From assembly GCF_036588685.1 (NCBI RefSeq), contig NC_086373.1, forward strand, positions 76,260,001 through 76,324,000: 64,000 bases of DNA. Reading direction: 5' to 3'. Source of the DNA: Mytilus trossulus (lineage: Eukaryota). Within the stretch, counting starts at the first letter, position 1; the number at the start of each line of letters is the position of its first letter. The notes under the pieces are model-generated. The model was given only the letters and a program-made list of their open reading frames with translations, searched no databases and was not told where the DNA came from. Positions 25,808 to 64,000 of the stretch are shown piece after piece. Position numbers and translations under genes: made by a program.

Positions 25808-27571
25808 ACGGTACCCAAATTGCACCTTTTTTGACAGTTTTTTCACCTACGTTTTTTTATGATCAAGAAAAAAATTTCCATACTGTGTTTATTGTGTAGC
25901 CCTATCCTTCTTTAATGTATAGGTACACCAATTTGTTTTTAGCTCACCTGGCCCGAAGGGCCAAGTGAGCTTTTCTCATCACTTGGCGTCCGGCGTCCGG
26001 CGTCGTCCGTCGTCGTCGTCGTCGTCCGTCGTCGTCCTGCGTCCGGCGTTAACTTTTACAAAAATCTTCTCCTCTGAAACTACTTGGCCAAATTTAACCA
26101 AACTTGGCCACAATCATCATTGGGGTATCTAGTTTAAAAATTGTGTCCGGTGACCCCGCCAACTAACCAAGATGGCCGCCATGGCTATAAATAGAACATA
26201 GGGGTAAAATGCAGTTTTTGGCTTATAACTCAAAAACCAAAGCATTTAGGGCAAATCTGACATGGGGTAATATTGTTAATCAGGTTAAGATCTATCTGCC
26301 CTGAAATTTTCAGATGAATCTGACATTCCGTTGTTAGGTTGCTGCCCCTGAATTGGTAATTTTAAGGAAATTTTGTTGTTTTTGGTTATTATCTTGAATA
26401 TTATTTTAGATAGAGATAAACTGTAAAAAGCAATAATGTTCAGCAAAGTAAGATCTACAAAAAAGTCAACATGACCAAAATGATCAGTTGACCACTTTAG
26501 GAGTTATTGCCCTTTATAGTCAATTTTTAACCATTTTTCGTAAATCTTAGTAATCTTTTAGAAAAATCTTCTCCCCTGAAACTGCTGGGCCAAATTATTT
26601 GAAACTTGGCCACAATCATCATTGGGGTATCTAGTTTAAAAATTGTGTCCAGTGACCTGGCCATCAAACCAAGATGGCCGCCACGGCTAAAAATAGAACA
26701 TAGGGGTAAAATGCAGTTTTTGGCTTATAACTCAAAAACCAAATAATTTAGAGAAAATCTGACATGAAGTAAAATTGTTAATCAGGTCAAGATCTATCTG
26801 CCCTGAAATTTTCAGATGAATTGGACAACCTGTTTTGGGGTTGCGGCCCCTGAATTGGTAATTTTAAGGAAATTTTGCTGTTTTTGGTAATTATATTGAA
26901 TATTATTATAGATATAGGTAAACTGTAAAAAGCAATAATGTTCAGCAAAGTAAGATCTACAAATAAGTCAACATGAACGAAATGGTCAATTGACCCCTGT
27001 AGGAGTTATTGACCTTTGTAGTCAATTTTCAATCTGCTTCCTTTGTTTAATATTCACATAGACCAAGGTGAGCGACACAGGCTCTTTAGAGCCTCTAGTT
27101 TAATCCATATTGAGTCCCAAAAAATGGGTTTGAATCAACCTCCAAACTATCCATCATTCTGTAATGAGGAGTACCTGAATTGCGTCCATGCTTAAATTCA
27201 CATCTTCAAAAGTCTAATAACAGAGCTTCTGTTTAATTTCTTCAAATATTTTGAACAATTGGATATAAGTCCATGCTTACTCTTCATATTTTACGAAATG
27301 GATACTTATAATATATTGTATTTGCTAATTTTAAAAAGATGACGTTTTGATGACGTTGCATGGTGACGTTTTCGTACATTTTGCTTTTTCAGTTAACAGT
27401 CCATCTGTTGATAAATACTGTGAACGTTTTGTGTATATCTAAATATGTTTACCTATGTTGAAAGACGCCCATAGTTTCAAATCATAAAAATTCAAATTGT
27501 TTAGTCTCTAGGAAATCTTGTAAGATTTCTGTTGCTATTTTTTCTAAATAGGTGCAATTTGGGTACTCCGT
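25808..27571. mobile_element. TIR DNA element hosting HINE copy 2
   Basis: Inverted repeat GTACCCAAATTGCACCT (~25812) / AGGTGCAATTTGGGTAC (~27550); exact termini and TSD unclear. Confidence 0.6.
25939..27100 (+). mobile_element. HINE-like element family A, copy 2
   Basis: Same termini as copy 1, (CGT)n microsatellite and two ~500-bp units; nested inside a TIR element. Confidence 0.85.
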
Positions 27572-29425: not shown

Positions 29426-32400
29426 TCAGACAGGACCAGTGACCCCATTAGAGTCTCCTCCTGTTATTTTTCTTATCTCACTGAAGGCCAGAACGGCTGA
29501 CACAGTTGTCATGACAACAGAGATCAGTGCTAAACCAAAGGACCATGACATAGATGAACTATGTTGAGAGAAGTTCATTCTGATTACATCGATAATACTA
29601 TCTTTGACCTTGATGGCATACACTATCATTGTCATCATCTGTAAACAGGCTGAAATGTAAAGGTTGTAGGGTTATATGTTAGATGATTATAAAATAATGG
29701 GGAAGTGGAAAAGGAAACAGGTGAAGTTTAACTATAGCTCTTCACGTTTCCATGTATTTGTTTCACTGGCTCTCAAATGGTTGAATTTGAGCATTGATAT
29801 CCGATGAATGTAAGTCCAGAAAAAAAACGTTTTAGGCGCACACAATTGAGTCAATGTTGTTTGCATAATTATTAAAAAAGAATCCAAGTACTGTAAAACG
29901 GTTAAGGGAGGGTTCTGTATGTATGTGCCTGTCCCAAGTCAGGAGCCTGCAATTCAGTGGTTGTCGTTTGTTTATAAGTGTTGCATATTTGTTTTTGTTC
30001 AATTTTTACATAAACTAGACCGTTAGTTTTCTCATTTGGATTGTTTTACATTGTCATTTCGGGGCCTTTTATAATTGACTATGTGATATGGGCTTTGTTC
30101 ATTGTTGAAGGTCGTACGGTGACCTATAATTGTTTGAAATTTCTGTTATATTTTGATCTCTTGTTGGGAGTTGTCTCATTGGCAATCATACCATATCTTT
30201 CTTTTTTCATAGTATGTCATTTTTAGCTCACCTGACCAAAGGGCTAAGTGAGCTTTTTTCATCACTTGGCGTCCGTCGTCGTCTGTCGTCATTCGTCGTC
30301 GTTAACTTTTACAAACATTTTCTCCTCTGAAACTACTGGACCAAAGCTAACCAAAACTTGGCCACAATCATTATTGAGGTATCTAGTTTAAAAAAAAATG
30401 CGTCCGATGACCCGGCCAACCAACCAAGATGGTCGCCATGATTAAAAATAGAACATAGGGGTAAAATAGAGATTTTGGCTTATAATTTTAAAACCAAAGC
30501 ATAAAGAGCATAATTGACATGGGATAAAATTGTTAATCAAGTCAAGATCTATCTGCCCTGAGATTTTCAGATGAATCGGACAACCGGTTGTTAGGTTGCT
30601 GCCCTGAACTGGTAATTTTAAGAAAATTTTGCCGTTTTTGGTTATTATCTTGAATATTATTATAGATAGAGATAAACTATAAACAACAATAATGTTCAGC
30701 AAAGTAAGATCTACAAATAAGCTAACATGACCAAAATGGTCAGTTGACCGCTCAATGAGTAATTGCCCTTTATAGTCATTTTTTACCAATTTTTCGTAAA
30801 TTTTTGTAATCTTGTACAAAAAATCTTCTTTTCTGAAACTACTGGGCCAAATTTAACCAAACTTAGCCACTACCATTATTAGGGTATGTAGTTTTAAAAA
30901 TGTGTGCGATGACCCAGCCAACCAACCAAGATGGGGCAGCCATGGCTAAAAATAGAACATATGGATAAAATGTAGATTTTGGCTTATAACTCTGAAACCA
31001 AAGCATTTAGAGTAAATCTCACAAGGGCTTAAGTTGTTTTCAAGTCAATATCTATCTGCCCTGTAATTTTCATATGAATTGGAATTGGGATTTTGCGTTG
31101 CTGCGCCCCAATTGGTATTTTTAAAGAAATTTTGTCGTTTTGGATTATTTTCTTGAGTTGTTAATTTTATCAAAATATTATCCTCTGTAACTAAAGGGCC
31201 AAGTGTATTATAGATAGAGAAAATTGTAAGTAGCAAGAATGTTCAGTAAAGTAAGATCTACAAACACATCACCATCACCAAAACACAATGTTGCCATGAA
31301 TCCATCTGTGTCCTTTGTATAATATACATACAGACCAAGGTGAGCGACACAGGCTCTTTATAAGAGCCTCTTGTTTTTGCTGTCAATGATGTCTCCTTTG
31401 AGCATAATTATTTCCTGTTGACAAAACTTTAAATTTTTCAAAAAACTAAGGATTTTCTTATCGCAAGAATAGATTACCTTCGCCGCATTTGGCACAACTT
31501 CTTGGAATTATTGAGTACTTAATGCTCTTTAACTTTGAACTTGTTTTGCTTTATAACTATTTTGATCTGAGCACCACTGATTTGTCTAGTGTCGAAGAAA
31601 CGCGCGTCTGACGTATTAAATTATAATCCTGATACCTTTGGTAACTATGTCACATCTTAAATTTATCGTGTTTAAATTTATTGATTTAGAAAGACTTCTT
31701 AGACTACAATATTCAGCTTTTTTAATATATACTTCAAAGTGTTTGTTGCCAGAAAACAGTGTATGTAAAGTGCGGATCCTAAAATATCATTTTCACTGTA
31801 TATGCCAGAAATTTCTAATGTAGAATGATAAATAAACAGACGACTTTTTTTTTTATTTTTGAAGAAAATGATAAGTTAAAATGTACATGCTAAGAAACAC
31901 ATAATACTAATAAAACAAAGAAAAGATCAAATCAGCTCTATCAAAACAGATGTTACTATACTTATAAAACTAAGAAGATGTGCTAATGATACAACAATCA
32001 AAGTGATGAAGATATCATAAGCCTTATGTAGAGTCGCATTAAAGCTAGAAACTCTGCACTTCATGCAAACATAATATCTGTCTTTCCACGTTCTATAAAT
32101 ATATAACATTGAATTACATACCTATACTCAAACACAACAAACATAACGACAATGTAAGAGAGAACATTGTAGACGACGAGGTCGGACATTTTATAAAGAT
32201 GATCAGAAATACTACAGTCAGAACATATCCAAAAATACACATCACCGAAAATGCTTGAACAGCCACTGCAAAATCTGGAGAGAGAGAAAAAAAACAAATA
32301 TTATCATTGCCTTTCGTTCATTAGGTTGTAAATACTATGTAAATGCCCGCTTTTCTCTTGCAATCTTAGAATTTAAGCAATAAGTTGCTTAAAATGTTTA

Positions 32401-35775: not shown

Positions 35776-36317
35776 ATAAATTAGAGTCATTAAAAGTGAA
35801 CATTACATCATCCGTGTAATTGTAAGAAAAGAAAAAGAGCTAATTTGCTAAAAAAAAATAACAAAAGTTTTTTGTCTTGCTTTCAATCTTATAGTAGCAG
35901 TATTTTATTCCCTGAATATAATTGCATTAGAGCACACTAGCTGGGATTAAAAACCCTAAAATAGAGTGTTCTTAAATGAAAGGAAAAAAGCTTGACGCAA
36001 AATATTCACCGTTTCCGATTTCATTATTATTGTACAACATCCGTTTTTCTACTTTCACTTTCTGTTTCTGCACTGATTGAGGATAGGATTGCACTGGTTT
36101 CCGTCAGCTGAGTGGTCACTGTGTTGTGTTGTGCAGTATTTAGACAAAGAGTACTGTCCAAAGGTATATGTTACCAAATATAAATATACGATTCATCTTG
36201 TGACTAGATCTATCCAGAAACGATCTTGATGTAACAAAAGTTTTTATTCTGTGTTATTTTTTTTTAATCTAGATGGGTCTTTATTTACAAAATAATTATA
36301 AAGTCCCACCTATTTAA

Positions 36318-36973
36318 GGTTTATGTGGACCCTATGGCTAAAATGGCCGTATTTTCACCTCAGAATTTACTATGAGTACAGACAAACCTGAGCATCTGTA
36401 AAAAAATTCAGGCATAGCATGCCCTAGATAAATGAATTTTAAGTATGTTTATGTTTTAGAAAGAAAAAAAAATTACCAGCATTTTGCCGTTCACTTTTTT
36501 TCATTCCTCCAGAATCTGGAGGAATGAAAAAAAGTGAATTCTGGAGGAATGAAAAAAAGTGAACGGCAAAATGCTGGTAATTTGAGAAGATGCCAAAATA
36601 AACTAAGTTAGGAAACAGGTTTGAGAACTTCCCCACAGGTAAAAATTAAAGTGAGCATTTTTAATTGACATGGACATTAGATGGACAATAGGTACCTGAC
36701 AATAATTGGTAAATTAAACTGTGTACCTGAGTGGACCATATCAAGGTAAACTCAACTGTTTGTTAATTTTATCATCTTCTGCAGAGACGAAAAAAAGTGT
36801 ACGGCAAAATCCAGTTAATTTATGAATTTTCTAAATCATACAATGCATTTGAATTCTATTTATCTAGGGCATGCTATGCCTTAAAACTTTTCAAAATGCA
36901 CAGGTTTGTCTGTACTCAGAGAAAATTTTGAGGTGAAAATACAGCCATTTTAGCCATAGGGTCCACATGAACC
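36318..36973. mobile_element. TTAA-flanked MITE with long (~125 bp) TIRs, Kolobok-like, in the presumed first intron of NitFhit
   Basis: TTAA|GGTTTATGTGGACCCTATGGCTAAAATGGC ... GCCATTTTAGCCATAGGGTCCACATGAACC|TTAA. Confidence 0.85.
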
Positions 36974-37738
36974 TTAATTTTAAATCCATATATATTGAAT
37001 AACCCCTTGAATCATATATGTAGACAAATGGAGTTAAACCAACCTTAAAAAACACCCACGATTCTGTTCAGAGGAGTGAGTACCCTGATAAATTTGCATT
37101 CAACTCCATAAAAATCAAATAGTTGATGTTTTGTTTTATTTCTTCTAATAATTAGAACAATTCGAATCCATTACTTGTGTTTTAAATGGATACTTGCTAC
37201 ATTTTTTAATTGCTTATTTTGCAAAGTTTACCTTTATGTGGATGTTGCATAGCGACATACTGTCCCTTTTATTTTTTTGTTAGAGTAAATTGTTAATTTG
37301 TTGGTATTGTAAATGTTTTATGCATATTTAAATATAATTATTTAGCTATGCAGACATAGTAGAAAGACTTGTTAATTTATGATATTGTCAAATGATAAAA
37401 ATACAAATTGTTATTCTCTAAGAAAACATGTCAGACTTTTAATTTTTGCTGATGTCACAGATTTTGGTCATGCATCAGTGTCATTGGCATTTTTTTTAAT
37501 GATTTTCAGTTATACATAGGTCCAAGAACAAAAATTGTATGCACAATTTTACCAAAATCTATGACATAGGTCATTTTACTTGACCTCCATCTTTCACAGC
37601 TGTATCTTAAAATACTTATCATGATAAAATTATCCTCATGTAACAAATAATTCAGTTATGTTTTAAGTACTTTAATATGATAAATTTAAGATATTCTGTC
37701 TTGAGAGCACTTTATGTTTTACAGTAGATGTACCACAG

Positions 37739-40700
37739 ATGAAGATTGTTTATCATAGTATAAGAACATTGTGGAGATCTCATAGTTTAACATTTGCTCG
37801 TTATAAATACCTGTCAACAATGTCTTCCATTGATGTCAGTAAGGTAGAACAGCTCAATCCTATTATTGGAGTATGTCAATTGACCTGCACAGTGGATAAG
37901 GACAAAAATTTCCAGATTTCTAAAAGTTTGATAGAAAGGGCAAAGAACAAAGGTGCAAAGGTTTGTATTTACCAATTGCGATAAGTATAAGGTGCTATAA
38001 CACCAGTACTCAAAGGTAGCTACATTGAAAACCCATTGGTGGCCTTCAGCTGTTGTCTGCTCTATGGTTGGGTTGTTGTCGCTTTGGCACATTCCCCATT
38101 TCCGTTATCAATTTTTATTTTATTATTCCTAAGGCTCAATAATCCTAAACTGAAGTGTAAGAACCATGCTTTTACTTTTAAAATACAGTCTAGTCAGTCT
38201 GGATTTGACTAAGCACCATACAATCTTTCTTAATGTACTGCAAAATAAGGGCAAAACATGCTGCTATAGGTTAAAATGTCAAACGGAATATATATTGAAA
38301 AGCTTTCATTTATTTCAGTATAGATAAACCTTGCAATCATTAATGCTTTAGGCAAAAGACATTCAGAAACAATATTTTTTTATAGAAAAATAGAAAAACA
38401 GAAAACCACAATAAAAAAAGAACAAATCTAGAAAACACAGAAAGGTCAAGAATGAGCAACATGAACACACCAAGTATATTGAGTATAAATAAAAGAGGAT
38501 ATGAGATGTATATTAATGAGCAAGATACTCAATATCAATACAAAAAAACCTCCATAAAATAAAACATTTCTTTAATTTTAGATGGTATTTCTACCAGAAG
38601 CAGTAGATTATATTGGGGAATCTAAACAACAGAGTATAGACATGGCAGAGGATCTTAATGGTATAACTATATCTAAATATCAAGATTTAGCAAAGCAGCT
38701 AGGAGTATGGATATCTGTTGGGGGATTCCATCAGAAGGTAAACAAGAATTTTCAGTAGATTGTTACTAAATTTTCATCCAACTTTATTTTAAATATATTT
38801 CAAACCTCATTGACGTTAATTAAGTTTAAAGTCAGGTGAGCTGATATCTAGATAAATGTAATTTTATAGGAGCATAATGAATTGTGTAAATACATATATG
38901 TAGAGTAGGTGAGCATTCAATCAAGAGTTGGACACCATGACTTTCATTTCATGTTTCATTGACATAAATTGAGTTGTTGTATATAGTATGTATGTGAATA
39001 TAAGTAAAAAGGACTTCTTTTTTGACAAGGGTTAACATTAGGGCAGAGTTTTGACATTGGTTAAGTTGAATGTTCTTATTCTTTTCTCAGTACTTATAAG
39101 ACTCAGTGTATTCAAACTTGTGAAGAGATCAATAGGTTATTTTCACCAAGTTATATTTTTTTTTACATTTATTCAATTAAACACTGTCCCAGGTTAGGGG
39201 GAGGTTTGGGATCCCGCTAACATGTGTAACCCCGCAACATTATTTATGTATGTGCCTGTCCAGGAGCCTGTAATTCAGTGGTTGTCGTTTGTTTTTGTGT
39301 TACATATTTGTTTTTCGTTCATTTTTTTTATATAAATGAGGCCGTTAGTTTTCTCGTTTGAATTGTTTTACATTGTCATATCAGGGCCTTTTATAGCTGA
39401 CTATGCGGTATCAGCTTTTCTCATTTATGAAGGACGTACGGTGACCTATAGTTGTAAAAGTTTGTCATTTTGGTCTGCTGTGGACAGTTGTCTCATTGGC
39501 AATCATACCACATCTTCATTTATATTTATTGTGCATAACAAGAAAACCTATGTGCTTGTAAATAACCTTAGTTTTAAAGCATGTCTATGCCTGATATGCA
39601 GTTTATAAAAAAGGATAACTTAAATTAAGAATAATCATCTCATGAAAACTGGCATATATATATATATAAGATAGAAAATTAATCTAAAACACAATAAAAT
39701 GTCTTTGCATCCCTACAGTGTATTAGAAGGGGTGTCAGGAGGATGCACATGAGACAACATTCAGGACAAATTCCATACATCTGTCACCGGAGTTATAGCC
39801 CTTTATTAGTTATAAGCAGAGAAAAAGTGTTCTTAGTTTTATACATACATCAATATTTCAGGTTAAAGAAGAAAAAAGATTGCTGAACACACATGTGTTG
39901 ATAGATAACAATGGAGAGATACAATCTACCTACAGTAAAGCTCATTTATTTGACCTTGACATACCAGAGAAGGTCAGACTATGTGAGAGTGATTATACTG
40001 TTCCAGGGGACAGAATGGTATCACCAGTGGAAACACCTGTTGGCAAAGTTGGACTTTCTATTGTATCTTTTCTGTCTCGTATATTAAGATGATGAGGCCA
40101 ATTTTGTTGGTCTATTTTATGGAACTTTATGTCAGTTTCTGAAAATTTGACAAATAATTATACCATTTTAAATGATATAGAAAACCTAAAAAGTATTGTA
40201 GTTCTGTTAATCAAAGACAAAAATCTCTTGATTACTTGTCTTTGTCTTAATAGTTACTCAATGAGGAAAATCAAACCAGCTCTTTACAGTTTGTGATTTT
40301 AGCCAGAACTGACATTATTTTTTTCCTTAACTCAATTAGTGTTATGATTTAAGATTTCCAGAAATGTCTACTGCCTTAGCTAAGGAAGGAGCAGATATAT
40401 TGACATATCCCTCAGCGTTCACAGTACCAACAGGGATGGCTCATTGGGAAGTAGGTAATAAAACAGTATCCCTCTTCTTTCACAATCCCTACAGAGATAT
40501 CTCCCTAAGAAATAGGTAATATATAGGAATCCCTTAGGACTCTATAGTCCTTAAAGTGATTGTTTACTTTATGAAAATGTATCATATCAAATTACTCCTA
40601 TGATCTTAGACAACAACACCTAAGATTTTAAAGAAAGCAAAAGGCAAAATATAATGTGACAAACATATTTTCTAATGATAATGTTGACTGAGGGACTAAC

Positions 40701-44656: not shown

Positions 44657-45927
44657 ACTGAATTGAAATGGAAAAGCCAATGGACACTTGTTGCAATACA
44701 TTTAGTGTTACTTTGTCAATCTCAGTTATTCAGATCTTCTTTTATTAAACAGAAATGCATAGTATCTCATCAAAATGAACATTGCAATGAAAAGCACTGT
44801 TGCCCTCTTTAACTGAAGGAACCCCATCACTTTCAGAATGTATATTTTTGTGGTTAGATTTAATTAGACTAACTTTGACAAAAAGGTGGTGGTTGACTTA
44901 CTATAAGTCACCCCTGGTTTTGATACTAATTAGGAATAGAAATAGTTAAGGTTCATGTTTTTACTGAAGCAAGGAGAGATTAGTAATTGGGTTGTCACTC
45001 AGTTGTTAAGGAGTGGGGCCTCCCCTCCACCCAACAAAGCTGAAAACAGTAAAGAACAAAAACATCAGTTGCATGTTATAGTTAATAAGCAGATATCATG
45101 AACATTCTCATTAAAAAAATAATTTACAGTACATAAATTTAATATAACTCAAGAATTTCCTTAATTTTAACAAGTACAACAAAGATTTCAAAATGATTTT
45201 TGATTGTAATCAGATTTTATTTTAAGTATTGCATTATAAAAGTGGATACTTATAACAGATTTTTTTGTTAAAGGGAAACTTCGCAAAAAAATCAAAAATT
45301 GATATTATGTCCGTCCATTCTGTATAAAAATGCTCAAATTTATAAATATTAAAGTTTTATTCCGCTAGATAAGAGATCACCATCGATTTTAAATTTTGAG
45401 TATCAGTTCTCTGCCTTCCGCCATTTTGTTATCTTGTTCAAATAAAAATCACGATATGTCTATAAACCACAAAGAAACAAAACTACAGTAACCGATGTAG
45501 TCTTAATTACGTGTCGATATCTTGTCAATCGTACGGTTGTTTTATCTGACTAACTAACTTGATACGGAAAATGTTCTTATTTTTTTAATAACCATATAGT
45601 CTGTTATTTTTAAACTGTTAATATTGGAATTAGTTAAAAAGTCAAAGTTCAAATCATAAATAAGTGTTCTGTTAGGCAGAGTTTTGTTTTATAAGGAGGT
45701 TTTTAAGATTTTTTAATTCTGGTTATATTCTTTTAAAAGGTGTACATGAGAATATTTCATTTTGCTATTGCTTTAGCAATAAAAATATTGAATGCTGTAT
45801 AAGTGTTTATTCCTTCATTATTGCATTTATATTATGAGTAGACATATGTTAACACAATTGTCAGTAGAAGTAGGTATTAAAGTAGATTTTATATAGGAAT
45901 CCAAAAAAAACTGAAAATATTGCTTTT

Positions 45928-47105: not shown

Positions 47106-47998
47106 TATCTTTCATGTTGTTTAGGTTATAACTTGTAAGGCTTCTTTGAAATAGATGTAAAACAAGTTTTCTTTATATGGTACATGTCTCTGGACAAATG
47201 AACTATTGGAGTTAGGTCAGGGTCAGATGAACTTGACAGATGTGTGCACCTCTGAATAATTTCAATCACACCAATCATTCCATAAACCAAATATAGTGAA
47301 AATGATGTCAAGGGCAATGGTCATTATTGACATAAGACTCACTGAAACTTTATATTATAAGGCATTTGTCTGCATGGTGGGAAGCATCCAGGTCTTCTAT
47401 CCACTTGTCAATGGTGATAAAAACTACATTGACCAATGAATCATGAAAATTTGGTCAAGGTCAGATGAGACCTGCCAGACACACATGTGCACCATACAAT
47501 TAATTTGTATACCAAGTGAAATTGACAATAGTCTTATAGTACTAGAGGATTAGACCTTACAATTAAAACTTTACATTGACCAATGAACCATGAAAATGAG
47601 GTCAAGGTCAGATGAGCTAGACAGAATTTTTCATCTTTATACAATCATTCCATACATCAAAATATAGTTGAACTACTGCTTATAGTTGTGGATACACAGA
47701 TTTAAATACAAGAGTGCACACGCTGAAATGTCTCGCCTTCCTTTCTAACCATTGATATTATGTTGATAGTCATAAATAGAAAGCTTTACTACAACTATTA
47801 CATAAACTTAACATGATCTTAGAAAATGAGGTCAAGGTCATATAAAAACAACAGCAAATACATGTACATCTTACAATCATGCAATGCACTAAATATAGTT
47901 ACTGCTTATAGTTTCAAAGAACAGACTGGACCAAGAAAACTAAACATTCAACACTGAAAATGAGGTCAAGATCAGATGAACCAGGCAGACAGTTACAG

Positions 47999-48485
47999 TT
48001 ACGATATTCCCGTGCTTGCATTTCCTATCATGATTTTCTTGATAGAGGGTTACTGCTCACAAGGAAGCTATTAAACCAAGAGTTCCAAATGGTGAAGTTT
48101 AATTCATCCCTTCGTAAATTTTACGAACGCCATCACGAGTTGGTTGACCGTTATGGAATAACCGTTTCACAAATAATATCGGATATGTTCCTTACGTCGT
48201 AACTACAATCCCCTTCCCTTTCATGAATTTGACCTACCGGATTTGTAATCACATAGTGGCAACACGACGGGTGCCGCATGTGGAGCAGGATCTGCTTACC
48301 CTTCCAGAGCACCTGAGATCACCCCTAGTTTTTGGTGGGGTTTGTGTTGTTTATTCTTTAGTTTTCTATGTTGTGTCATGTGTACTATTGTTTTTCTGTT
48401 TGTCTTTTTCATTTTTAGCCATGGCGTTGTCAGTTTGTTTGAGATTTCTGAGTTTGACTGTCCCTTGGTATCTTTCGTCCCTCTT
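47999..48485 (+). mobile_element. 3' fragment of a Penelope-like retroelement (RT C-terminal/thumb region plus trailer)
   Basis: Translation LRYSRACISYHDFLDRGLLLTRKLLNQEF...LRKFYERH resembles the PLE RT C-terminus (recalled, not searched). Interrupts a satellite unit with TTACAG at both junctions. A related trailer remnant lies at ~62970-63175. Confidence 0.65.
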
Positions 48486-48977
48486 TTACAGCCTACAATT
48501 CTTCCATACAACAAATATAGTTGACCTAATACCTATATATTATAGTTTAAGAAAAACAGAGCACAACACATAAACTTAACACCGAGCAATGAACCATAAA
48601 AAAATGTTGAGGTCAAATAAAACCTATGAGACAGACATATGCATCATAACATATTTCCATACACCAAATATAGTTGACCTATTGCATATAGTATTAAAAA
48701 AAAGATCAAAATTCAAAAACTTAACTTTGACTACTGAATCATGAAAGTTATGTCAAGGTCAGATGACATCTGCCAGTGGGACATGTACACCTTACAATCA
48801 TTCCATACACCAAAGTTGATAAACCTATGGAGAAACAGTTTAAGAAAATAAGACCAAAATACAAAAACTTAACCATAACCATTGAACCCTGAAAATTAGG
48901 TCTGACAAGGTCGATGACACCTGCGTGTTTTACACTCCTTCCATACACAAAATATACTCTAGATCTATTGCTTATAG

Positions 48978-49013
48978 CAGAGACATATAATACAATTGTA
49001 TTATATGTCTCTG
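48978..49013. mobile_element. 36-bp perfect palindrome with 7-bp TSD (P-element-like footprint or micro-element)
   Basis: CTTATAG|CAGAGACATATAATACAA TTGTATTATATGTCTCTG|CTTATAG. Confidence 0.8.
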
Positions 49014-50196
49014 CTTATAGTATCTGAGATATGTACTTGACCACCAAAACTTAACCTTGTTAACTCATCCATGAAATGAGGTCGAGGTCAGGTGAAAACT
49101 GTGTGATAGGTATGAGGACCTTGCAAGGTAGGCACATACCTGTCCAAATATATTTATCCTGCTAATATTACCTATAATAAGAGAAATAAACATTACAAAA
49201 ACACTTTTTGATTCAATTAGTCACTGAACCATGAAAATGAGGTCAATGACAATGGACATGTGACAGACGGAAACTTCGTAACATAAAGCATCGGTATCGA
49301 GTCAAAATATGAAGCATCCAGGTCTTCCACATTCTAAAATATTAAGCTTTTAACAAGTTAGCAAATGCCGCCGGATCGCTATCCCTACATCGAGCCTGCG
49401 ACAACGAAAGACTTACTATTGGCCAATGAACTATCAAAGACAAGACCATCTTACAATCAATCCATAAATCAAATATAAAGTTGACATACTGCTCAAAGTA
49501 TCTGAGAGATAGACCTGTTTACGAAAATTAGTGTTGCTCGCTGATCCATAAAATAAAGTCGAGGTCAGGTGTGCCTTAATTGTTTCACGGACACCTAGAC
49601 CTCGCAAGAAAGGTCTTTACAAAATATTATTTATCCGGATTCCCAGTTCCCATTAGTGAGAAATTTACACGACAAAAAGTATAAGAATTTTAAAGTTTGT
49701 TCTTATGTTTGTGCTGTTACAACAATGTCACAGGTTAACATTCGGTATGTGCAAATCCAATGTCAGGAGCATAGATAATTTAGAGATCGTTGTTTGTTGA
49801 TGTATTAATTTTAGTTTCTCGTTTGTTTGACTTTTAAACTCAAATCAGATCAGACTGTTGGTTTTCTCGTTTGCTAAGTTTTAGTAATACATTTGTCGAA
49901 CCCTTTATAGATCTTTATAGCATGCTATGAGGTATGGGCTCTGTTCATTGTTATAGTTCGTATGGTGACTTGAGTTGCTCATATCTATACGTTTACTTAT
50001 TTCGTCTCTGGTAAATCGAAATCCGTATGTGTCACATACTGCCTCTTTCATCTAAAACCTTCTTATATTTTTAAAAAGAGGAATTTGCTAGCTATACTTT
50101 CTTTTACTGTGATTAGATGGTTGAAGCTTTGATCTTATCAGTTAATTTTGAATTCACAAACATGTGTAGACATTACTCTACTTGACTTTTCGTGAT

Positions 50197-52195
50197 TTAT
50201 TCCAAAAAACCAAAAGAGCTTTTTAACTCTTCATCGAATGGCATAAATCCTGTGCAAACATTTGAATTACAGTAACATGTTGTGCCTCTTTTCTGGTCTG
50301 GCCTTAACGTCCCATAAACAAATGATAGCTCTTCAAGAGGTTCAATGTCTCTATTTGCAAATAAGCAAACTTTTGGAACCATAGTGTCTACTCTAATGGG
50401 AACCATTGATAAATTAGGAGAACAACTGTGATTTATATATCTCCCAATATTTCCTAACTTATCTGGATCAACATAGGTTTTAAGTATGCCAGTTTTACAA
50501 TGCTCCTTTACAGTGAGTATATAATTCATGTCCGTATCTTTCTGTTTGATACATCTGCTTTGTGCCTCTTGTAAGGATATAATTTCTCCTGCATATTCAC
50601 ATACAAACGTTCCTCTTTGTATGTTCTCCACAGTCTGAAGACCAAGACCTTTCTTGCCCGTATTGAATATTTGTAATTGTACACTGATACCGTGCTGGAC
50701 TACCCTGTTTTGACACTGCGAAGGACATGCACAGTTAGAATTGCATTCAAATACAGGTGTTACACTGGACCCCAAAAGGCTAACGTCTATTTTCTTGTCA
50801 GTGTATGCATTTCCATAGCGAGCAGTACATGTACAGTCTCTATCACAAGCTAGGCATTGACAGCCGAGAAGTTTCTCTTCAAAATCATCCATTTCACATC
50901 CTGGACCAGGAATGTTTTGTGTGACATACTAAAATGAAAATTCACAAGATAAGAAAGTATAAGCAACAATGTCAGGTTAATGGTATTGTTAAAAAAAAAA
51001 AGAATGCCGAATCCTTGTTAATATACTAAAATATGAATAACTGACCTGATATAAAAATTATTTGGTCACCAAAAAAGTAAACATTATTCTTTAATTATTA
51101 TATGTGTTTCGTAAAAATAAAATAAAGATCTAGCTCAATACATATGTCTACCATAGACAGACGTTATTAACCAATTGCTCCTGAATTTTGAGAGACACGT
51201 ATTTGGGATTTTATAATATGGTATGAATCGTACTATGATTAAAACAATACTTCGATGTCAGTCGGAGAGATGTCGAGTTGGGATTCATAACCCACTGGCT
51301 CACGTGGTTAGACTCGACAGGAGTACATAACATCCTACCGGTACCCGGATACATTTTCAGACTCTAATTGTAAAAAAAAAAAGATGTGGTTGGATTGCCA
51401 AAGAGACAACTCTTCAAAAGAGACCAAATGAAACAGAAATTAATAACATAGGTCACCGTATGGTCTTCAACAATGAACAAAGACCATACCACAAAGTCAG
51501 CCATAAAAGACCCCGAAAATGACGAATGTAAATCAATCCAAAAGACAAAACTAACGGCCTAATTTTTTTACGACAAAAAATGAACGAAAAACAAAAAGTT
51601 TTGGATCCGCTACTGGTGTCGTTACACAGGAACTCGTCTTAGAAAAAAAATCCTATTTACCATTTTTACCTTTATAAAATGGTATATAGGAAATTGTTTT
51701 CTGAGACGAGTGCCTCAGGCTCATGTTACATTTACGCTCTATTAGCAAGTTTGCAAACATGCAGTCTTATACACAATGAAATAATTGTGTGACAATCTTT
51801 TGACATGTTTTGACAAAAATTACAATAAGGATATTATTTGACAATGTCGCTAAGGTAATTATTTTTCTAATTGTGTCTGGTGAGGAATCAAAAATTCAAG
51901 AAAGTAACACGATGGCAGCATCTGTCATCATCTATTGATCCTGGGTCTACTATAACACACTGTTATAGTAGTCATAGTAGATCACACAATACAAAATAAA
52001 AATACTAATCAAGTCCGAAATGTTATACGTAGTGTACATAAAATCAACACTTTATAGATATACTGATTTCCGACACCAAATAAGAACCTCGGACCATACC
52101 TTCGATTTCTTCAGCTTGAAGATAAGAACTTTGTCATTGCTGAATATTGCTTTGTTTTCAAGTCCTTCAGTCCAGTCAAACTTGTTAATATCCAT
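50197..52195 (-). CDS. SETMAR: SETMAR-like histone-lysine N-methyltransferase (pre-SET/SET/post-SET only, ~275 aa)
   Basis: Exon 1 52195-52100 (MDINKFDWTEGLEN...KSK|GT) and exon 2 50928-50197 (YVTQNIPGPGC...). Motifs: pre-SET cysteines, PVFECN..C.C...CQNRVVQ, FVCEYAGE, GNIGRYINHSCSPN and post-SET CYCNSNVC. No mariner transposase follows the stop. Confidence 0.88.
51628..51715. mobile_element. ~88-bp imperfect palindromic mini-element in the SETMAR-like intron
   Basis: AGGAACTCGTCTTAGAAAA...TCCTATTTACCATTTT / AAAATGGTATATAGGA...TTTTCTGAGACGAGTGCCT. Confidence 0.6.
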
Positions 52196-52328
52196 ATTTT
52201 AATTTTCCGGAAGTCACTATTCTAAATGGTGGTTCGTATTCGGATACACTTATCAAAAACCGCGTTTTTAGTCGAGAAACTACTTAGGTGAGCAAAGAAA
52301 AATATTGCCAAACCGTATTAAAGAAAAA

Positions 52329-52490
52329 CAGTGGCGGATCCAGGAATTTTCATAAGTGGGGGCCCACTGACTGACCTAAGAGGGGCCCCACTTCAGTCAC
52401 GCTTTAGTGATTCCCTATATAAGCAACAAAAAAAATTCCCAAAAAGGGGGGGGGGGCGGGCCCCCGCCCCCCCCCTTAATCCGCCTATGA
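52329..52490. mobile_element. Small MITE (CAGTGGCGGATCC termini); related copy at ~63728-63872
   Basis: CAGTGGCGGATCC ... AATCCGCCTATG with GC-rich G/C runs. Confidence 0.6.
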
Positions 52491-53336
52491 AAAAGCACTG
52501 TTAAACTGAACCCCAATATAGAACTTTGAAATGCTCCTCTTTATACTTATAGACGGATGATTTTTCTCATGATATTTTCCTGAAATCTTGCTAATGGAAA
52601 AATCAAACAAAATTAAAATGACAAACTTTATCACTTTAATTTTTAATGTATACCATATTCCTATAAGTTGTAGATACAGTTTGTCCCAGTGTGTTGCGTT
52701 TACGTATCTCAGATTAATCACATCATATTTCAATGATTGCTACTTTTTTTTACAATTATTTTCCTTGACTCAGAAGATTATACATGCTATAGTGTATTAA
52801 ACTTTTTTATGATCATATATATCAACAGAAGTATACCTTCTCTATAATTGGTTAAGAGGGAGCATAGCTTGGATTACTGCTTCACTATTTCTCCTATCAT
52901 GTCGACATGACAGTCATGAGTGCTGTTACTGGATGCTGGATAAGACGCGGAGTCCCCATCTCTGATTTATGTGACCATTATTCGGTGCTTTCATTCTTAT
53001 GTTTGTCGGTTTATACCTGGACTTGTGATCATTTGATCTGTATACCACATCCATTTTTGCTTTGAAATAAAAATTTTGAGTCAGCATCCGGGTGAAGTTA
53101 TTTTTTATCAACAATGAAGTGCTGGTTTTATATTGGATTAAAAAAAAAAAGTAAAAGCAATTGTTCTGATAAGATGTAATTTTATTTTACATTGAAGCAC
53201 TAATAAATATGATAGCGGTTATATACAAAAATATACAATTATTAATAGAAGTACATGTACATTTTGAAATGCAGTTCTTAATTCTTAATGTTTTATGTTG
53301 GCACTTGGTTGGTATTGCATCTCTGTTTTAATTTCC

Positions 53337-54757
53337 TCAGCACATGATTTCTCTATCGTCTTCTATGTCCAGCTGTGGCATGTCCAAATGTGGCATGTCC
53401 AACTGAGGTGACCGGTATAACATTGGTGTCCTTGATCTTGGAGTTTGCATGACTTTCTGTAGTTGCTGGGGAACATTCCTGAAAAACTGCGAAATCGGAG
53501 ATCGAGAGGTGGGTTTAACCATGGCAACAGGTTTGTTTTTAGTTGTCGATGGAGGAAAATTCCATTGCCTCTGTTCTGATTGGGTTTTGGCTGTACAACA
53601 CTTCTCGTCGACTTTGCTCACCACGATATCTGGAAGAGGTCTCCTTTCTGGTAAAATGACGTCACTGCTCCCGCTACTTTGTCTATGGCGGGGTGAAAAC
53701 AAACCACTCTTCCTTCTTTTATCTGGTGAAATTCCTAAGTCGATGACATGAACAAGAGATCGTCTTCCTGTCTTCTTTTTTGGAGTTAGTTTAGGCGATT
53801 CTGTCAACACACTGTCATCTAACGTTTTCAGTGGCCGATTCTTTTTTGTAACACTTTGGAGATACAAATGATTAGGAATTTCCATCTCTTTCCAAAAACT
53901 TGACACTTCTTCAGCAAGATCTTGTGGAATTTTGAACAAATTGTTTCCAGATTCAATCATAAATGCAACCAGGTGACAAAATGTCTTAGTAGTTGTTTGC
54001 AGTTCAGTACCGCTAGACGATTTATTGCAGAGAAAATGAGGAGTAAATATAATAGCCAGTGAATCCGCTGTCATGAGATTTTCCGGTGTTTTTGACGTAC
54101 GATGTAGCAGTGTAATCAATGGTCTCAGTAAGCAATAGTTGTCGCTTGGCATCAGTAACATCAGCAGTTGTAGAGCTTTTAAAGTTGTTGGTTTGGTTTT
54201 ATCTTCGGTTGTCAGTAGTGATGCTAATCTAGTATACACATTATGGAATCTGTTTGTTAGTAGAGGTTCACGGAGGTCTCGTATGAAGTTCTTTAGCACG
54301 TTAGCTCCATCATGGGACGAAATAAGTTCCAAATCAATCATGGAACACTCCAGGAGTTGTTTTCTAACAGTTTTCTGGCGGCTTATGTTACCTGTTTTAC
54401 GGAACAGTCCTTCATCTTTGATGTTGTAGCTTTTTCCAATGAATTCCATCAAGACTGTGAGAGCAGAAATGGAATCTGGTGTCAGCTGTGTAAATTCTTT
54501 CTTTTTAATAGACTTTCTGTAGAATGAGAGTCCGGAGCTTTTGCGTTTGAGAGTAACCTTCTCGGGAGTCTTTCTGTTCACTTGCGAGTCTATTTCTTGT
54601 GTTGGCATAGTGACTGTTTTACCAAGACTACTAAGCACCATTTCTTCGAATTTGTTGGGCATGCTATTTTTTAATCTGAAGACATTCCGTTCTGCCTGTT
54701 GCTGGCATCTGTTACGTCTTAGTGAGGATGTAGACATTGTTTGTCGTCTTTTAATCG
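53337..54757 (-). CDS. ARHGAP19-like Rho GTPase-activating protein, copy 1 (single large coding exon)
   Basis: Uninterrupted ORF 53337-54797 with RhoGAP motifs EGLFRKTGN (Arg finger), ANVLKNFIRDLREPLLT and NLMTADSLAIIFTP. Likely acceptor CAG at 54760-54758, first in-exon Met at 54737. ARHGAP19 affinity is from recalled similarity of the N-terminal RL...P..F.E.V segment. Confidence 0.85.
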
Positions 54758-55938
54758 CTGTGAATGTGTAAGAATAATTGAAGTATGAATAACTCATTTA
54801 ATCTTCGATTTTTATATGCTAGAAATTTTACTCTATTATGACATGACTCGTTGTGGTGGACGTATTGAGGGATAGTTGAGATGAGCTGTCATTAAGTTAT
54901 GGAGTCATTAATGAGGTGGTCTATTTTTGTTTTGATAATTTACTCTGTTACCTATTTCATGCATATACCAAAAAGAAATTAAAGACTTTACAGAAAAATT
55001 TGTAAGTAAATATATATATGGTTTTAAATTAGATAAATGCATGAATGTTAAGATGAAATATTTTACATTCTATCAAAAAAAATTAAGTAAACAGCTTTTA
55101 CTTCCTATGTTTTGTTCAATAAATTACAATTTAAAATGTTTTATATTATTCCAGTAAATATTTTCGACATCTTCAATCTATTGTTATATAAAATTACCTG
55201 AATGTTTTTTAGCTTTAAAACTTCTGTATTTATTTATTTCTCTTGACAATTCCATTTTTCTTTTCTTTTTGTTATTTAGTAAACTCAGAAGGTGGAAGCT
55301 TGTTTGAATGAATCTCAGAACTTCATGCTTTTATATAAAGTTAGTGTAGAAATACTTCATTTTATCAGATTCAAAATAATAATTAATTCCTAAAGTCTAT
55401 TAATTATTTTTCTATTTTAATTCAAAAAAGATGAATATCTAATCATTCAGTAGTAACTTGGGGCAAAGTTTAAGGATCAATTAATTAATGAAGATTAAGA
55501 ATAATTAATTAAACAATATTTTTATTTCACACCCTTTTAATAACTCGCACCTCTGGTATTAGCGCGTGCTTTTTCCACACCTTGACAGATATTGGTATTA
55601 TAGCTGTTAGCAATACACACTTCTGCTAAAGACAGCAAGTGCATCTTTTCATAAACAAATAACAATTCATTTAACGATGAAACGTCACAACGCATACATA
55701 AAAGGCTTGTCATACATAAAAAAAAATTGGAATGTGATCTTGAGAAATAAAAATTGCCTCCCCATCCTATTAATGCATCTTTGATAAGGTTTCAAGTAAC
55801 GGTATAAATATCTATATTTATATATGTTAAGAACGAAAGGTTCCAAACGACGATATCTTTTCTCATATTAAACTAAAGCTTCCATCACAATTTTGAGATT
55901 TTATTTTGTATTTCAACATCGACAGTATATGGGTACAG

Positions 55939-55972
55939 CAGAGGCATAATACAATTGTATTATATGTCTCTG
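55939..55972. mobile_element. 34-bp member of the same palindrome family, decayed TSD
   Basis: GGTACAG|CAGAGGCATAATACAATTGTATTATATGTCTCTG|GGTATGC. Confidence 0.65.
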
Positions 55973-56113
55973 GGTATGCCTTCTTATAAATAATGACTAG
56001 TTTCAAAAACCTTTCAAACTCTAAGTCATTTATTTTTCAGAGCCATATATTTACTGCATATATATCTAAGATTTTTCTGTACGTATACCGCATCGTTGCA
56101 ATCTTTCGTTTCT

Positions 56114-56382
56114 ATGAAGTCGAAATATCGACATATTATTCTTGCGAACTGTAGTCTCTTTCTCCAATAACAAAGTATATTTGGGTTTCACTAACAATGT
56201 ATAACTTTAGGTTTATTCATTCTGATAGCAAAACTGTAGCAAACAAATGAAGTCGAAATATCGACATATTATTCTTGCGAACTGTAGTCTCTTTCTCCAA
56301 TTACAAAGTCTATTTGGGTTTCACTAACAATGTATAACTTTAGGTTTATTCATTCTGATAGCAAAACTGTAGCAAACAAATG
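56114..56382. repeat. 133-bp tandem duplication (2 copies, 2 differences)
   Basis: ATGAAGTCGAAATATCGAC... starts at 56114 and at 56247. Confidence 0.92.
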
Positions 56383-56621
56383 GATGTTCTTAACATCTTG
56401 TACTTAGTTTACAAAATATCTTTTGGTCCTAACTTACAGACGATTGGATCAATTTTTCAACTAAAATTGAAATAGATGTGAAGAGAAAAATCTTCATTCG
56501 GGTCACCCACTACTCATATGTCTTGTGTATCAGTATTGGGATCTAGTGCAAATAAAAGTTTTGTATTTTATTCTTAACAAGTATATTGAATTCTTATAGT
56601 GGATTGTCATTCGTGTATTGT

Positions 56622-56654
56622 CAGAGACATATAATATTTTATTTTATGTCTCTG
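56622..56654. mobile_element. 33-bp member of the same palindrome family with 7-bp TSD
   Basis: GTATTGT|CAGAGACATATAATATTTTATTTTATGTCTCTG|GTATTGT. Confidence 0.75.
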
Positions 56655-56872
56655 GTATTGTGAACTTTATAAATAATGTATCATGTTGCCATCGTTATCA
56701 AAATTAAGAATGAAATTAGTATGTATTCAGAGTAATACTATATTATATAAGGTCTTTATAAAACAAGGAATTGGACCTTCAAATTTTTTTTTAACAATTA
56801 TCTTCAAAATAAATAATTTCATATTTTTCACCACATAAAAAGTTATAAATGGTACCAAAATTATAATTTAAT

Positions 56873-56917
56873 ACGCCACATGCGCGTTTCGTCTACTGAA
56901 AGACTCATCAGTGACGC
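56873..56917 (-). ncRNA. Minimal type I hammerhead motif, cleavage triplet mutated
   Basis: Minus strand: GCGTCA-CTGATGA-GTCT TTCAGT AGAC-GAAAC-GCGC-ATG-TGGCGT. Confidence 0.65.
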
Positions 56918-59487
56918 TCATATCGAAATAGTTATAATAAAATGATGTGTATCTAATCCTCAATTATTTCTACCAATTTCACTTGTTTATTTGTATATAC
57001 AAACTTATTATTTTAAGGCTGCCGTGTCATAAAATTACAATTAACATGACTATGGGACCCCGTCCCTTTTTCACCTAACACTAATATAGGTGTCATAATC
57101 GTCCCCGAACCTGTTAAATGTGATTGTTCATGTCCCGCAAGGGTGTGAAATCTGATAACGGGGTTGACACGTGAAAAGACCACTATATTTATTAGTGTAT
57201 TATCATTATACCCCATCTCTGTTGATTGGGACAATGACAGAAATCTATTCACTTCATTATACATAATTAATCATAACAGTATAAAAAGAAATCGCATTAA
57301 ACAAAAAAATCATAAACTCTTGTTTTGTGAATGAAGACAACATCTTCTATATATTGTCATTATGGATTATAAAGATATTCAAGCTATGAAGTACAGAAGT
57401 TTTAGAGTTACAAGAAATACAGGTATAAATTCTTCTAAACTTTAAAAAATTAAAACAGAAACAATTTTTATTTATTAATATACGCAATATCATCATCAGT
57501 TTTCCATATTTATTGTTACATCCGAATTTACTTTACCAAAATATGTGTTTTATTCGTTCACTTCTGTCATAGATGTTGGGTTTTTTAATAAGAACGTTTA
57601 TATTTGGATTTTTCCGTAAATATTATAAATAGTCTTACTTTTTGTGTTTGCCTTATAATAAAATATTACAATTTTCAATTCACTTCAATATTTTAACATC
57701 TAAAATATATTGGAGGATTTGGATATTATTCTCTTATTCATGATCATTCATCAAATATGCATACATATATATATAATCAAAGTAAATTTATGCATTTCGA
57801 AACATACACTTTCATTTATAATCTATAGAATTTATTTGAATAACAGTTGAGTAGTAAGAGAACCTTTTTTTTCAAGTTGATTTTAAAACATTCCGATCTC
57901 GCACATTTTTTATTTTTATATAAATAGTTTTTACTATGATGTCATCAATTAAATTATCGACCCCCCCCCCCCCCCCCAAAAAAAAAAAATATGAAAAAGA
58001 AGTTTTTCTAAATAACGAATACAAAATGTTTTAAAAAGTTATGAAAACAAGAAATTAAACGTTTGTATCTTTGGTGCGAAAATGCATTAAATATAAAATA
58101 ACTGCAAGTAAAATATTATATTAAACTTTTGAGACAAAATAATATTTTATTTTCAGTTCATTTGAATGCTGTCTACATCATATTATAGTTAATTGACTAA
58201 AACACTCTATATTTACTTAATGTAATTTAGTTTAACACTTGAAGGTATGGGGTCATTACAAACACACGAGAACTGTTAACCCCTCCCGGTCACGGACATG
58301 ACATTTTGACACTCATTATTATATATCATATTTCATGTTTAACTTTTTATTATCATATGAAATTTTAACAAGGAAGGATTATAACTTATTGGGATGTTTT
58401 CAAACCGGTCTTCATGTAAGTCCTCATATTTACCATATATATCCATGTACTGAGGTTATTAAATTGTTCATTTTATTAATAAGACAATAGTTTCCAAAAT
58501 GAATGAAAAAAATGAATTATAACAGTATAATTTCGTATTATCGATCCAGAATTTTCAGTAAAACATTTATATGAAATTCATTGATTTTATAAAAGCATTT
58601 GTCATCGAGAAGAAATCTTCTATTTTGTCAACAAATATTAAACACAAACCAATAAGTTTATGATGACTGTGCAAATGCCTTCCTTTAAATACCGTATGGA
58701 CTGACTCTCCCTTTATCAATGAACAAATATTGTCTAATATCATGGAAGTATTATATTCACAGGAACTTATATATATGTTATCAATAAAAATTATATAATT
58801 TTGTATGTATTTCACGTAACCAAGGAGTTCATATAACCTCCTTTACGTAACTTTGATATGCTCGCAATAATTTCTATGATTAGGAAAATAAGGACATTAA
58901 TATATTAAGATAATTAGTATTAGTGTGCGGATATTCAAGAATCAGAGTCCAAATACACTTTGAATATCAAAAAGCGATAGAGCAATTGCATGATTTAACA
59001 TTTGCTACAATAACCCAGTCACATATCGTTGGAACCCTCCAAATAAAAAGCCACTAAGCAACGCACTACCCTTATAAAAATTGAGAATTCAAAGTTATAT
59101 TTTAACTGGGACTATATACTAACTAGTATACTAGTCCCAGATTTCAAACTAAAGATAATGAATGAAGCAAGTTAAAAGTGCATTTTGGGTAACATCAAAG
59201 CACCGAACTCCGTTAAACATAATTGTCAGCTTATGATATATATCTTAATTTACAAAGACCGATATGAATAATTCATCCATACCAATAACACTGAAAGAGT
59301 ATCACGTATATAATACATATATAAGGAGATTATTTTACATTAATGAGACAGCATCTCATCAAGACATAAAACAATTTGTTGTTTCAATCATTTATGGCTC
59401 ATGATTCTATAATATATTAGCTTTATTGTGGATCTTTATTGAATCTTTAGTACTAGTTATTATATTTTTATATTACATTTCTTTCAG

Positions 59488-60842
59488 GGTCTCCAGCACA
59501 GTCCGCCAGTAGACTAACACTTCCTGCAAATAGAAGAACCCGTTTTCAACCATCAGAAAAGCACGTTTGTCGACTTCAGAACTGCATGCCTCTGAAGTTT
59601 AAAGAGTTCGTAAAGTCACACTTATCAACAATCCTTGAAATACCACAAGATGACTTTGAGACATTGATGATATTACCTGCTGCACCAGTTCCACAACACA
59701 AGACGCCTCTGTCGTTTAGTAAGAGAAAAGCTCAGAAAAAGTCCATGTTTGGCTCCGACCTTTCACCAGAGAATATTGCATCAGTGCTTCAGTTGATCAA
59801 CTACCTATCCCAAGATGACGTCATATCAACAGAAGGTATATTCCGTAAAACAGGCAACATATGCAGACAGAAACAGTTGAAATCAAAGCTAGACTCAGCA
59901 ACACTTACCGAGAAATACCTGTCTTCGTTATCTCCACACGACAGTGCCAACGTCCTCAAACGCTACATTCACAATCTACCAGAACCTCTTCTAACTCAAA
60001 AGTTCTTCAATGTATATGTTCAGATTACCAACATCACCAAGTCAACAAAAGAAGAAACAAAGTCTGCCAAGATCCAAGCTATGCAACTTGTTCTCCATCT
60101 TTTACCATCCGACAACCTCAACTTATTGAAGCCATTGATGACACTCCTCAACAAAGCCGCATCCATCTCTAGTAACCTGATGACAGCTTATTCTTTAGGT
60201 ATTTTATTCGCACCTCATCTCCTCTGTGATCGTCATTCGTCAGCTGACAACCTTCACTCTGTTCTACCGAAAGTTTCCGATTTGGTTTCCATAATGATAG
60301 AGAATGGTCCACAGATATTCAGCATACCAAAAGACTTGTCTCGATCCGTAGCTAACTTCTGGCGAGAGATGGAGGTACCAAACCAGCTTTATTACAGAAC
60401 AGTTCAAGAAACTACAGACTTAGCTGTTACAGACCGTACGTCACCGAAAGTTCACGTCGTAGACCTCTGTGACAAGCCAAAAGCCACCAGTACACTCACA
60501 GTGCCCTTTACACCTCCAACACAATCACGTAAGAGACTTAGTAGTGACACAAGTGATGGTATCCCAGAGAAGAGACCTACACCAGAGATGTTCCTTTCAC
60601 CAGTATGTAATGTACTCGACTTTAAGCCGAAACTCAGTAAGCAGACTAATTCCATCATCTTCAGTACAGCACCTGGGTCTTCCTCCAAGAAACCAGTAGC
60701 ACGTGTAAAACCAATTCAACATTCACCCATATCACAGTTCTTCAAGAGTGTGCCACTAAAGCTTCAGCGGGTTATGTCAACACCGAGATCTCGTGCTCCG
60801 ATGGCTTTGTTCCAGTCACCTAGTTATAGTGTGAAGTTTTAA
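59488..60842 (+). CDS. ARHGAP19-like Rho GTPase-activating protein, copy 2 (single large coding exon)
   Basis: The frame is open from acceptor TTTCAG|59488 through Met 59586 to the stop at 60842. Motifs EGIFRKTGN, ANVLKRYIHNLPEPLLT and NLMTAYSLGILFAP. Similarity to copy 1 extends upstream of Met 59586, so an upstream exon is likely (not located). Confidence 0.85.
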
Positions 60843-62463: not shown

Positions 62464-64000
62464 TGATAACCATCGTTTTTTACTACCTTCATGGCAAATA
62501 TATTGTTTATTTCCAACATAATAAAACACAAAAAAAACCAACATGGAATTTAACCAAAGATGGAGAACAGGGTCTTCTTTTATTTATTGGATACCTAAAT
62601 TTCATAAGTGCCAGTATAAACAACGATACATTAAATCATAATGCTAAGTCTTCCAAGTATACTCGAAACCAAACATCTTTCTGAATTATTAACATCAAGT
62701 GTAGCAAAAAACAGCTGGGCGGTTTGAATTGATTGTAGATACTTAAAAATACAAAGATCTCCCAGATTTCATACCAACTAACTCCCTTTCCTCTTGCAAT
62801 ATAGTATTAAGACAACGACTTTTCTACTATTTACAAAGGTATTTGCCATTCCAAACTCAAATACAAGAATTAACCCTGCTATATTTTCATGCTGCATTTC
62901 TTGATTGATAAGATATTTGTTACAAGATATTATAATCGAACTGTAAATAAAGGATGCGCCAGATACATATGTGGTGCATGATCTGCGTACCGTTCTGGAT
63001 CACACGAGACCACCCCCAGTTTTTTCGTGCTAGTTTATAGTTAACCCTGATGTGTTGTGTAAACTATTGTTTATCTTTTATTTTATTTTTGCATTGACAT
63101 CGTCATTTCTTTTTCGGCGTATGAGTTTGAAGAGGCTTTGAATGTCCCTATGGTATCTTTTGTCTCTCTTTTACCTTCAGATGAAAGTTTCAAACTGTAA
63201 ACCGAAAAATGACTACAAGATAATATCTATTAAATGTTAACGGGGCCAAAATTGCCAGTCCGCTTCTTGTAGAAGAAAGAAACTAGATTAATGTCAAAAG
63301 ATATTGTGTGTCAAAAAATACAAAAATGCCTTACAAGTGTTGCTTATATTAGACGAAAATTAACACTTTACCTGTGAAGGCTAATGTAATATTAAAACTT
63401 ACTTCGGAGAAATGTTTCCGTGTCAACTTGTAAAGAAGTTCAGCAAAATGTAATAATATTAATACTAGACAATATTATACATCATGTACATAGAGATATA
63501 AATCATAAGATCGAGTATCAATAATTCACCATTTTAATGAATTTTATGAGGGTAGCATACTCAATTTGCATGAATCTAACTGTCAGATTACAAAAATCAA
63601 GGATTTGTAAAGTAAAATCCTTGCAAAAATGCAGCTGGTCTTTGAGTTGAAGCTTTTAACAACCTTTAAAACCTCTCTTAATATAAAACTATCATTATAT
63701 AACCCTTTAGCTTTGGAATATCACTTGCAGTGGCGGATCCGGAAGGGGGGTCCAGGGGTTGGAACCCCTTTTTTTTGGGAAGATCTATGCATTTAAATGG
63801 GAGCATATAGTTGGAACCTCTGCTTTACTCTGAGTTGGGACCCCCTTTTTAAAATGGCTAGATCTGCCCCTAACTTAAAAAGCAGACCTTTTTTGACAAT
63901 ATTAGAATTTGTTATACAGTTCTTTTTTTTTCAGTTTGAAAAATATGCCACTTGCAGGTTTTTTTCATGCATACATATGAGAGTCATAATGGTGGCGGTA

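Follow-up and report, generated by a model that had tools for sequence, protein, structure and literature searches.

Introduction

What left a perfect 36-bp palindrome between two copies of one 7-bp sequence in a single unit of a repeat array of Mytilus trossulus? The palindrome lies in the 64,000-nucleotide stretch of DNA analysed here (contig NC_086373.1, positions 76,260,001 to 76,324,000; hereafter the window, whose own numbering is used throughout), and a sequence-only reading of that stretch had proposed either a P-type excision footprint or a transposon of minimal size. P transposases are distinguished by the long stagger of their cut, which, in the literature cited here, has been measured only for the fly enzyme: the two strand cuts of the Drosophila P transposase lie 17 nt apart, so that the donor site is left with 3' tails of 17 nt (PMC7776569). 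When P breaks are repaired in Rad51-mutant flies, the sequenced junctions retain both 8-bp target duplications around the joined tails. Among 68 fly junctions, the commonest short-microhomology joins formed perfect palindromes, 30 bp long in 14 isolates and 32 bp long in 5, 20 junctions used long microhomologies that removed most of the ends, and the tables contain one 17+2+17 junction (PMC2895639). Galileo and 1360, which also belong to the P superfamily, make 7-bp duplications (PMC3698922, PMC4168063).

The palindrome and its empty sites

The palindrome that we call copy 1 occupies 48978..49013 (unstranded; two 18-bp arms, spacer 0) and lies between exact CTTATAG repeats at 48971..48977 and 49014..49020 (both on the + strand, from the sequence read-out and the sister-unit alignment), just as the sequence-only reading had described; it likely consists of two joined transposon end tails. 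Because the target CTTATAG is itself partly palindromic, the perfect palindrome extends to 40 bp (48976-49015) with 20-bp arms; in 30 Markov simulations, no-spacer arms reached a maximum of 7-11 bases. Letting the direct repeat overlap the last two bases of the element would lengthen it to 9 bp, but duplications of 8 or 9 bp are ruled out by two further copies described below, copy 3 and L004, which set the boundary at 7 bp.

The host of copy 1 is an array (47560..49560, approximate limits, + strand; defined by alignment and contig depth) whose repeat units have diverged and occur in very high copy number, each with a single target and thus representing an empty site. The claim that sister units carry CTTATAG only once was borne out, and the units named for it lie at 47676-47687 and 47902-47913. 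When copy 1 was aligned with five sister units, four showed a clean gap of 43 columns (36+7), and the fifth had a local AT-rich change instead. In four public sequencing runs, 30, 40, 52 and 50 contigs had a loose end before 49012 whose letters belong to the unit's upstream part, so that paralogous units continue across a single target without interruption. The empty sites seen for copy 1 are paralogous units, and no locus with alleles for the full element, the scar and the empty site turned up in the contigs listed.

Further copies in the window and elsewhere

The 18-base arm has five matches in the window against 0.21 expected, and none of 100 shuffles reached five. The window contains two copies that were absent from the earlier reading. 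Copy 2 (55939..55972, unstranded) is 34 bp long and has the same centre as copy 1; its left arm has lost two bases and changed one, and its flanking 7-mers agree at only 4/7 positions, a decayed duplication. Copy 3 (56622..56654, unstranded) is 33 bp long, has a centre unlike that of copy 1 and is flanked by an exact 7-bp duplication (56615-56621 and 56655-56661). Listed contigs of runs X1, X4 and X12 bridge copy 2 without a large gap, and one listed X1 contig bridges copy 3; since both are spanned by contigs, they are not assembly errors. No contig bridging copy 1 occurs among those listed, with 39,090 further pieces outside that listing. Run X1 may come from the source of the window itself.

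A fourth copy, 31 bp long and with an exact 7-bp duplication, was found in L004, animal-like DNA among 17 metagenome matches, which shares with the window a 133-bp repeat at 95% identity (window 45540-45672). The L004 record (1-2682) comes from a metagenome collection, resembles DNA of the host animal and has no frame of 150 aa. The four sequenced copies thus measure 36, 34, 33 and 31 bp, retain the outer ends of the arms and all start with CAGAG (4/4). Exact 7-bp duplications that differ in sequence flank three of the four (copy 1, copy 3 and L004), and the insert is alike at different targets and unrelated to the sequence around it. The 36-mer is one member of a family whose palindromic insertions are dispersed, measure 31-38 bp and lie between 7-bp target duplications.

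Depth and length variants in public sequencing runs

Twenty of the 21 listed runs match part of 48700-56900, four of them labelled mollusc metagenome and five being coded organisms. Depth was analysed on contigs of four of the 21 runs (X1, X2, X4 and X12), placed at 90% likeness; runs X13-X19 and X21, which have a small share of matching words, were left out. Summed depth at the palindrome centre was 64,800 in X1, 4,355 in X2, 30,600 in X4 and 26,500 in X12, against 29-39, 4-14, 22-39 and 9-20, respectively, for the listed long contigs. As summed depth is no copy number, these values can be read only as presence of the palindrome at hundreds to thousands of loci.

Among the 12 indel rows listed of 76, five fall at 48993-48996, the central four bases, one falls at the centre of copy 3, and none lies elsewhere in the 36-mer. 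The listed indels reduce to forms of 35, 34 and 38 bp, which jointly make up 13-30% of the depth at the centre. The 36-bp form appears dominant in contigs, which drop rare variants, and under a 90% cut-off that favours 36-like forms.

Other elements of similar size

The window was scanned for elements of 20-45 bp whose 9-bp arms are perfect and whose 7-bp duplication has at most one mismatch, settings chosen after a looser scan had been seen. Five elements of 26-36 bp were returned, namely copies 1 and 3 and the three described below, and four of the five start with CA. The same scan in 150 simulations gave a mean of 0.093 and none starting with CA, and the looser settings gave 18 matches in the window versus 4-8 in simulations. 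A 26-bp element starting with CAAGG (63598..63623, unstranded; perfect 9-bp arms, exact 7-bp duplication) is a candidate scar of a second family, and a 33-bp element starting with CAAAG (40212..40244, unstranded; perfect 9-bp arms, 7-bp duplication with one mismatch) is a candidate scar of a third; both are single copies. A 35-bp element at 59106-59140 starts with CTGGG and not with CA; its 9-bp arms are perfect, its 7-bp duplication contains one mismatch, and it falls in the scar size class. One size class across several unrelated ends is what a fixed cut depth predicts.

Three related hairpin elements of 23-30 bp (10856-10878, 25945-25967 and 30225-30254) lie between AGCT and T runs; they either form a small repeat family of their own or belong to the end of some larger repeat. 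At 36314-36977 there are nested inverted repeats with 129-nt arms at 87%, including a near-perfect palindrome of 49 bp at 36490-36538.

Search for a parent element and transposase

If the palindromes are remnants of a longer transposon, elements with the same ends and a THAP domain or P transposase might be found, as the sequence-only reading had anticipated; the window and 29 loci matching the arm yielded none. Apart from L004, no arm-match locus (0/29; 2 viral, 17 metagenome and 10 genome) has an inward-facing partner with a duplication, and the other 28 were treated as chance matches, with only the short copy in L004 retained. The paired-end pattern was found in 0 viral contigs. Among 418 end pairs in the window there was no long element, only short ones and one weak pair spanning 19 kb; an outward-facing pair at 2393-2484 was dropped. 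A Pfam search of 95 window frames of at least 68 aa, a set that leaves out most frames inside a 96-bp array, detected neither THAP nor any transposase family.

In a curated bivalve DDE library, searched over about the initial 400 characters of every record, the first 10 bases of the element have no match; the accompanying LINE file has one internal match, which was judged to be chance (PMC10294476). The library lists no P family, and its text counts 133 hAT families (PMC10294476). An arm search in 12 other supplements was likewise without a match. The sources searched for a parent contain little animal DNA, which makes these negatives weak.

Other features of the window

The window is AT-rich, and its coding pieces, as recognized by Pfam, are HECT, SET, RhoGAP, nitrilase and HIT. 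At 19068-22026, about 28 repeats of a 96-bp unit (95% alike) precede seven of a 48-bp unit, in frame with a HECT-domain exon; either the exon end has been amplified in tandem or the assembly is at fault. An uninterrupted frame of 243 aa with Pre-SET and SET lies at 50197-50928 (-). Two long uninterrupted RhoGAP frames, at 53337-54797 (-) and 59457-60842 (+), face apart and share similar C-terminal words, and they probably represent an inverted gene duplication; copies 2 and 3 sit between them. Short repeats of very high depth occur at 51203-51736 and 52271-52537, with bins above 150,000 in run X1 and many loose ends, and unrelated tandem arrays of 2-5 units of 166-171 bp occur at 1544-1893, 2820-3132, 8791-9585 and 14864-15282.

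Discussion

The copies have the build of a P-type scar, with both duplications kept, two end remnants between them and a variable join (seen in the 12 indel rows listed of 76). They combine a 7-bp target duplication with inverted ends that start with CA, as in the P superfamily, whose inverted-end consensus is CANRG. The case for membership of the parent in that superfamily consists of the CA ends and the 7-bp duplication, of which the CA start would by itself be a weak sign. We consider it probable that the 36-mer family consists of P-type excision scars, that is, works like the P footprint. In favour of the excision-scar interpretation put forward in the earlier reading are the 7-bp duplications at different targets, the 31-38-bp range, the variation of length at the centre and the likeness to fly junctions; against it stands the failure to find a long parent. 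Two further observations weigh on the negative side: dominance of the 36-bp form would also be given by a mobile element, and the indel in copy 2 lies in the arm and not at the centre. Palindrome centres, moreover, can mutate independently of excision.

The mollusc copies and the fly P repair junctions both keep the two target copies, join two tails head to head, form short perfect palindromes through a self-complementary tip, and show small insertions or losses at the centre (PMC2895639, PMC7776569). They differ in that the mollusc elements have a 7-bp and fly P an 8-bp duplication, and in that the dominant mollusc form of 36 bp exceeds two 17-nt tails, in contrast to the 30-32 bp of fly P. 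The fly junctions were induced, whereas the mollusc elements are natural, abundant in several mollusc-associated organisms and known from short forms alone. Galileo and 1360/Hoppel have 7-bp duplications as observed here; the target of copy 3 agrees with the Galileo consensus at 5/7 positions, whereas those of copy 1 and L004 depart from it (PMC4168063). PMC3698922, PMC4168063 and PMC2775673 describe no footprints for these elements. Our literature search, mostly of papers available without subscription, returned no description of natural P-type scars.

Under the excision-scar interpretation, a long element would have inserted and created the 7-bp duplication. Its transposase would then have made widely staggered cuts at both ends, so that each broken chromosome end carried end sequence of the element as a single-stranded tail, and end joining would have fused the tails, mostly via their self-complementary tip to give 36 bp and otherwise to give the 31-38-bp forms; the resulting scars would be inert. 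The tails may have been 18 nt long (blunt join) or, more probably, 19-21 nt (annealing of 2-6 bases), and not 17 nt as in the fly. The earlier statement that an 18+18 geometry fits a 17-nt cut is roughly right, but 36 bp from 17-nt tails requires a 2-base insertion, identical each time; tails of 18 nt need only a blunt join, and tails of 19-21 nt anneal by 2-6 bases. Tails of 19-21 nt have lengths of 36 and 31 bp for their two longest microhomology products, and both lengths were observed, whereas 17-18-nt tails give 28 bp. These considerations suggest that the mollusc cut is deeper than the 17 nt of the fly enzyme, with 18-21-nt tails fitting better; the estimate of 19-21 nt involves some circularity, since the scar itself supplies bases 19-21. 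Against a deeper cut, the 31-mer can also arise from the 36-mer by slippage, and a 17+2+17 junction occurs once in the fly tables.

Could the same palindrome arise without a transposase? A long fold-back element might pair its ends during replication, and slippage between palindromic words 15 bases inside would leave a 36-bp remnant. The centre is a 6-base palindromic word and hence a direct repeat between the two ends (a 6-base microhomology at 21 nt), such collapse predicts one dominant product, as observed, and nearly precise excision is known for Tn10-related elements (PMC12524634); elements of the Galileo type have long internal inverted repeats and 7-bp duplications. Collapse alone, however, does not yield the 34-, 35-, 38- and 33-bp forms and leaves unexplained the 26-36-bp class shared by elements with unrelated ends, and we give it a small chance of being correct, though it is a real rival. 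The very high depth and the seemingly dominant exact length in four runs, together with the failure to find a parent in the window, the 29 loci and the record starts of the curated library, would also suit a minimal non-autonomous transposon moved by a transposase in trans, the alternative raised in the sequence-only reading. Yet only 2 bp of duplex would remain after a 17-nt stagger and none after one of at least 18 nt, the P transposase makes contacts in the inner half of a 31-bp end and requires pairing with the non-transferred strand (PMC7776569), and the listed length variants concentrate at the centre. P-derived MITEs resemble the 36-mer in being non-coding and in having inverted ends, a target duplication and many copies (Anopheles P-MITEs, PMC1562414; BuT5, PMC3698922). 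They measure, however, from about 200 bp to more than 2 kb and have sub-terminal sequence, and those of Anopheles retain about 100 bp per end (PMC1562414), whereas the 36-mer has no interior; identity with such a MITE was rejected, as the 18-bp arms abut and the sub-terminal transposase-binding region is absent. With at most 2 bp of duplex after excision and no inner end sequence, a mobile 36-mer is disfavoured and, under P chemistry, unlikely; a different enzyme could move it, and overall we regard mobility as rather improbable.

The parent may instead lie outside the P superfamily, for example in the hAT group, the short forms being either extreme deletions left when gap repair aborted or scars of a long-stagger chemistry not yet described. 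The hATw group of hAT makes 7-bp duplications, and aborted gap repair is expected to give a broad range of lengths, which argues against that origin. The P assignment draws on just the CA ends and the 7-bp duplication, the 95 window frames contain no transposase, and hAT elements are abundant in bivalves, where no P family was curated (PMC10294476). On the other hand, the first 10 bases are unmatched in the record starts of the same library, with its 133 hAT families, and hAT, like MULE and Transib, hairpins the flank on excision (PMC5499845) and would be expected to leave no element ends. A hAT, MULE or Transib footprint was rejected because different targets contain one and the same insert, unrelated to the flank, and we judge a parent of another superfamily unlikely.

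The end-joining mechanism is already known; what is new here are the mollusc families and a hint of an 18-21-nt cut. As a broader and tentative proposal, which we hold to be possible but not probable, several mollusc P-like families cut 19-21 nt inside their ends, and their scars, present in the germline by the thousand, preserve a record of the cut depth of each family and of the end-joining habits of their hosts. Insertions of 30-40 bp with such a build may go missed or be mislabelled as MITEs in repeat libraries. Natural scars would show the long stagger outside insects together with the cut depth of each family, and would supply a large sample of germline end-joining outcomes. If the proposal is true, transposase chemistry would be readable from genome sequence alone.
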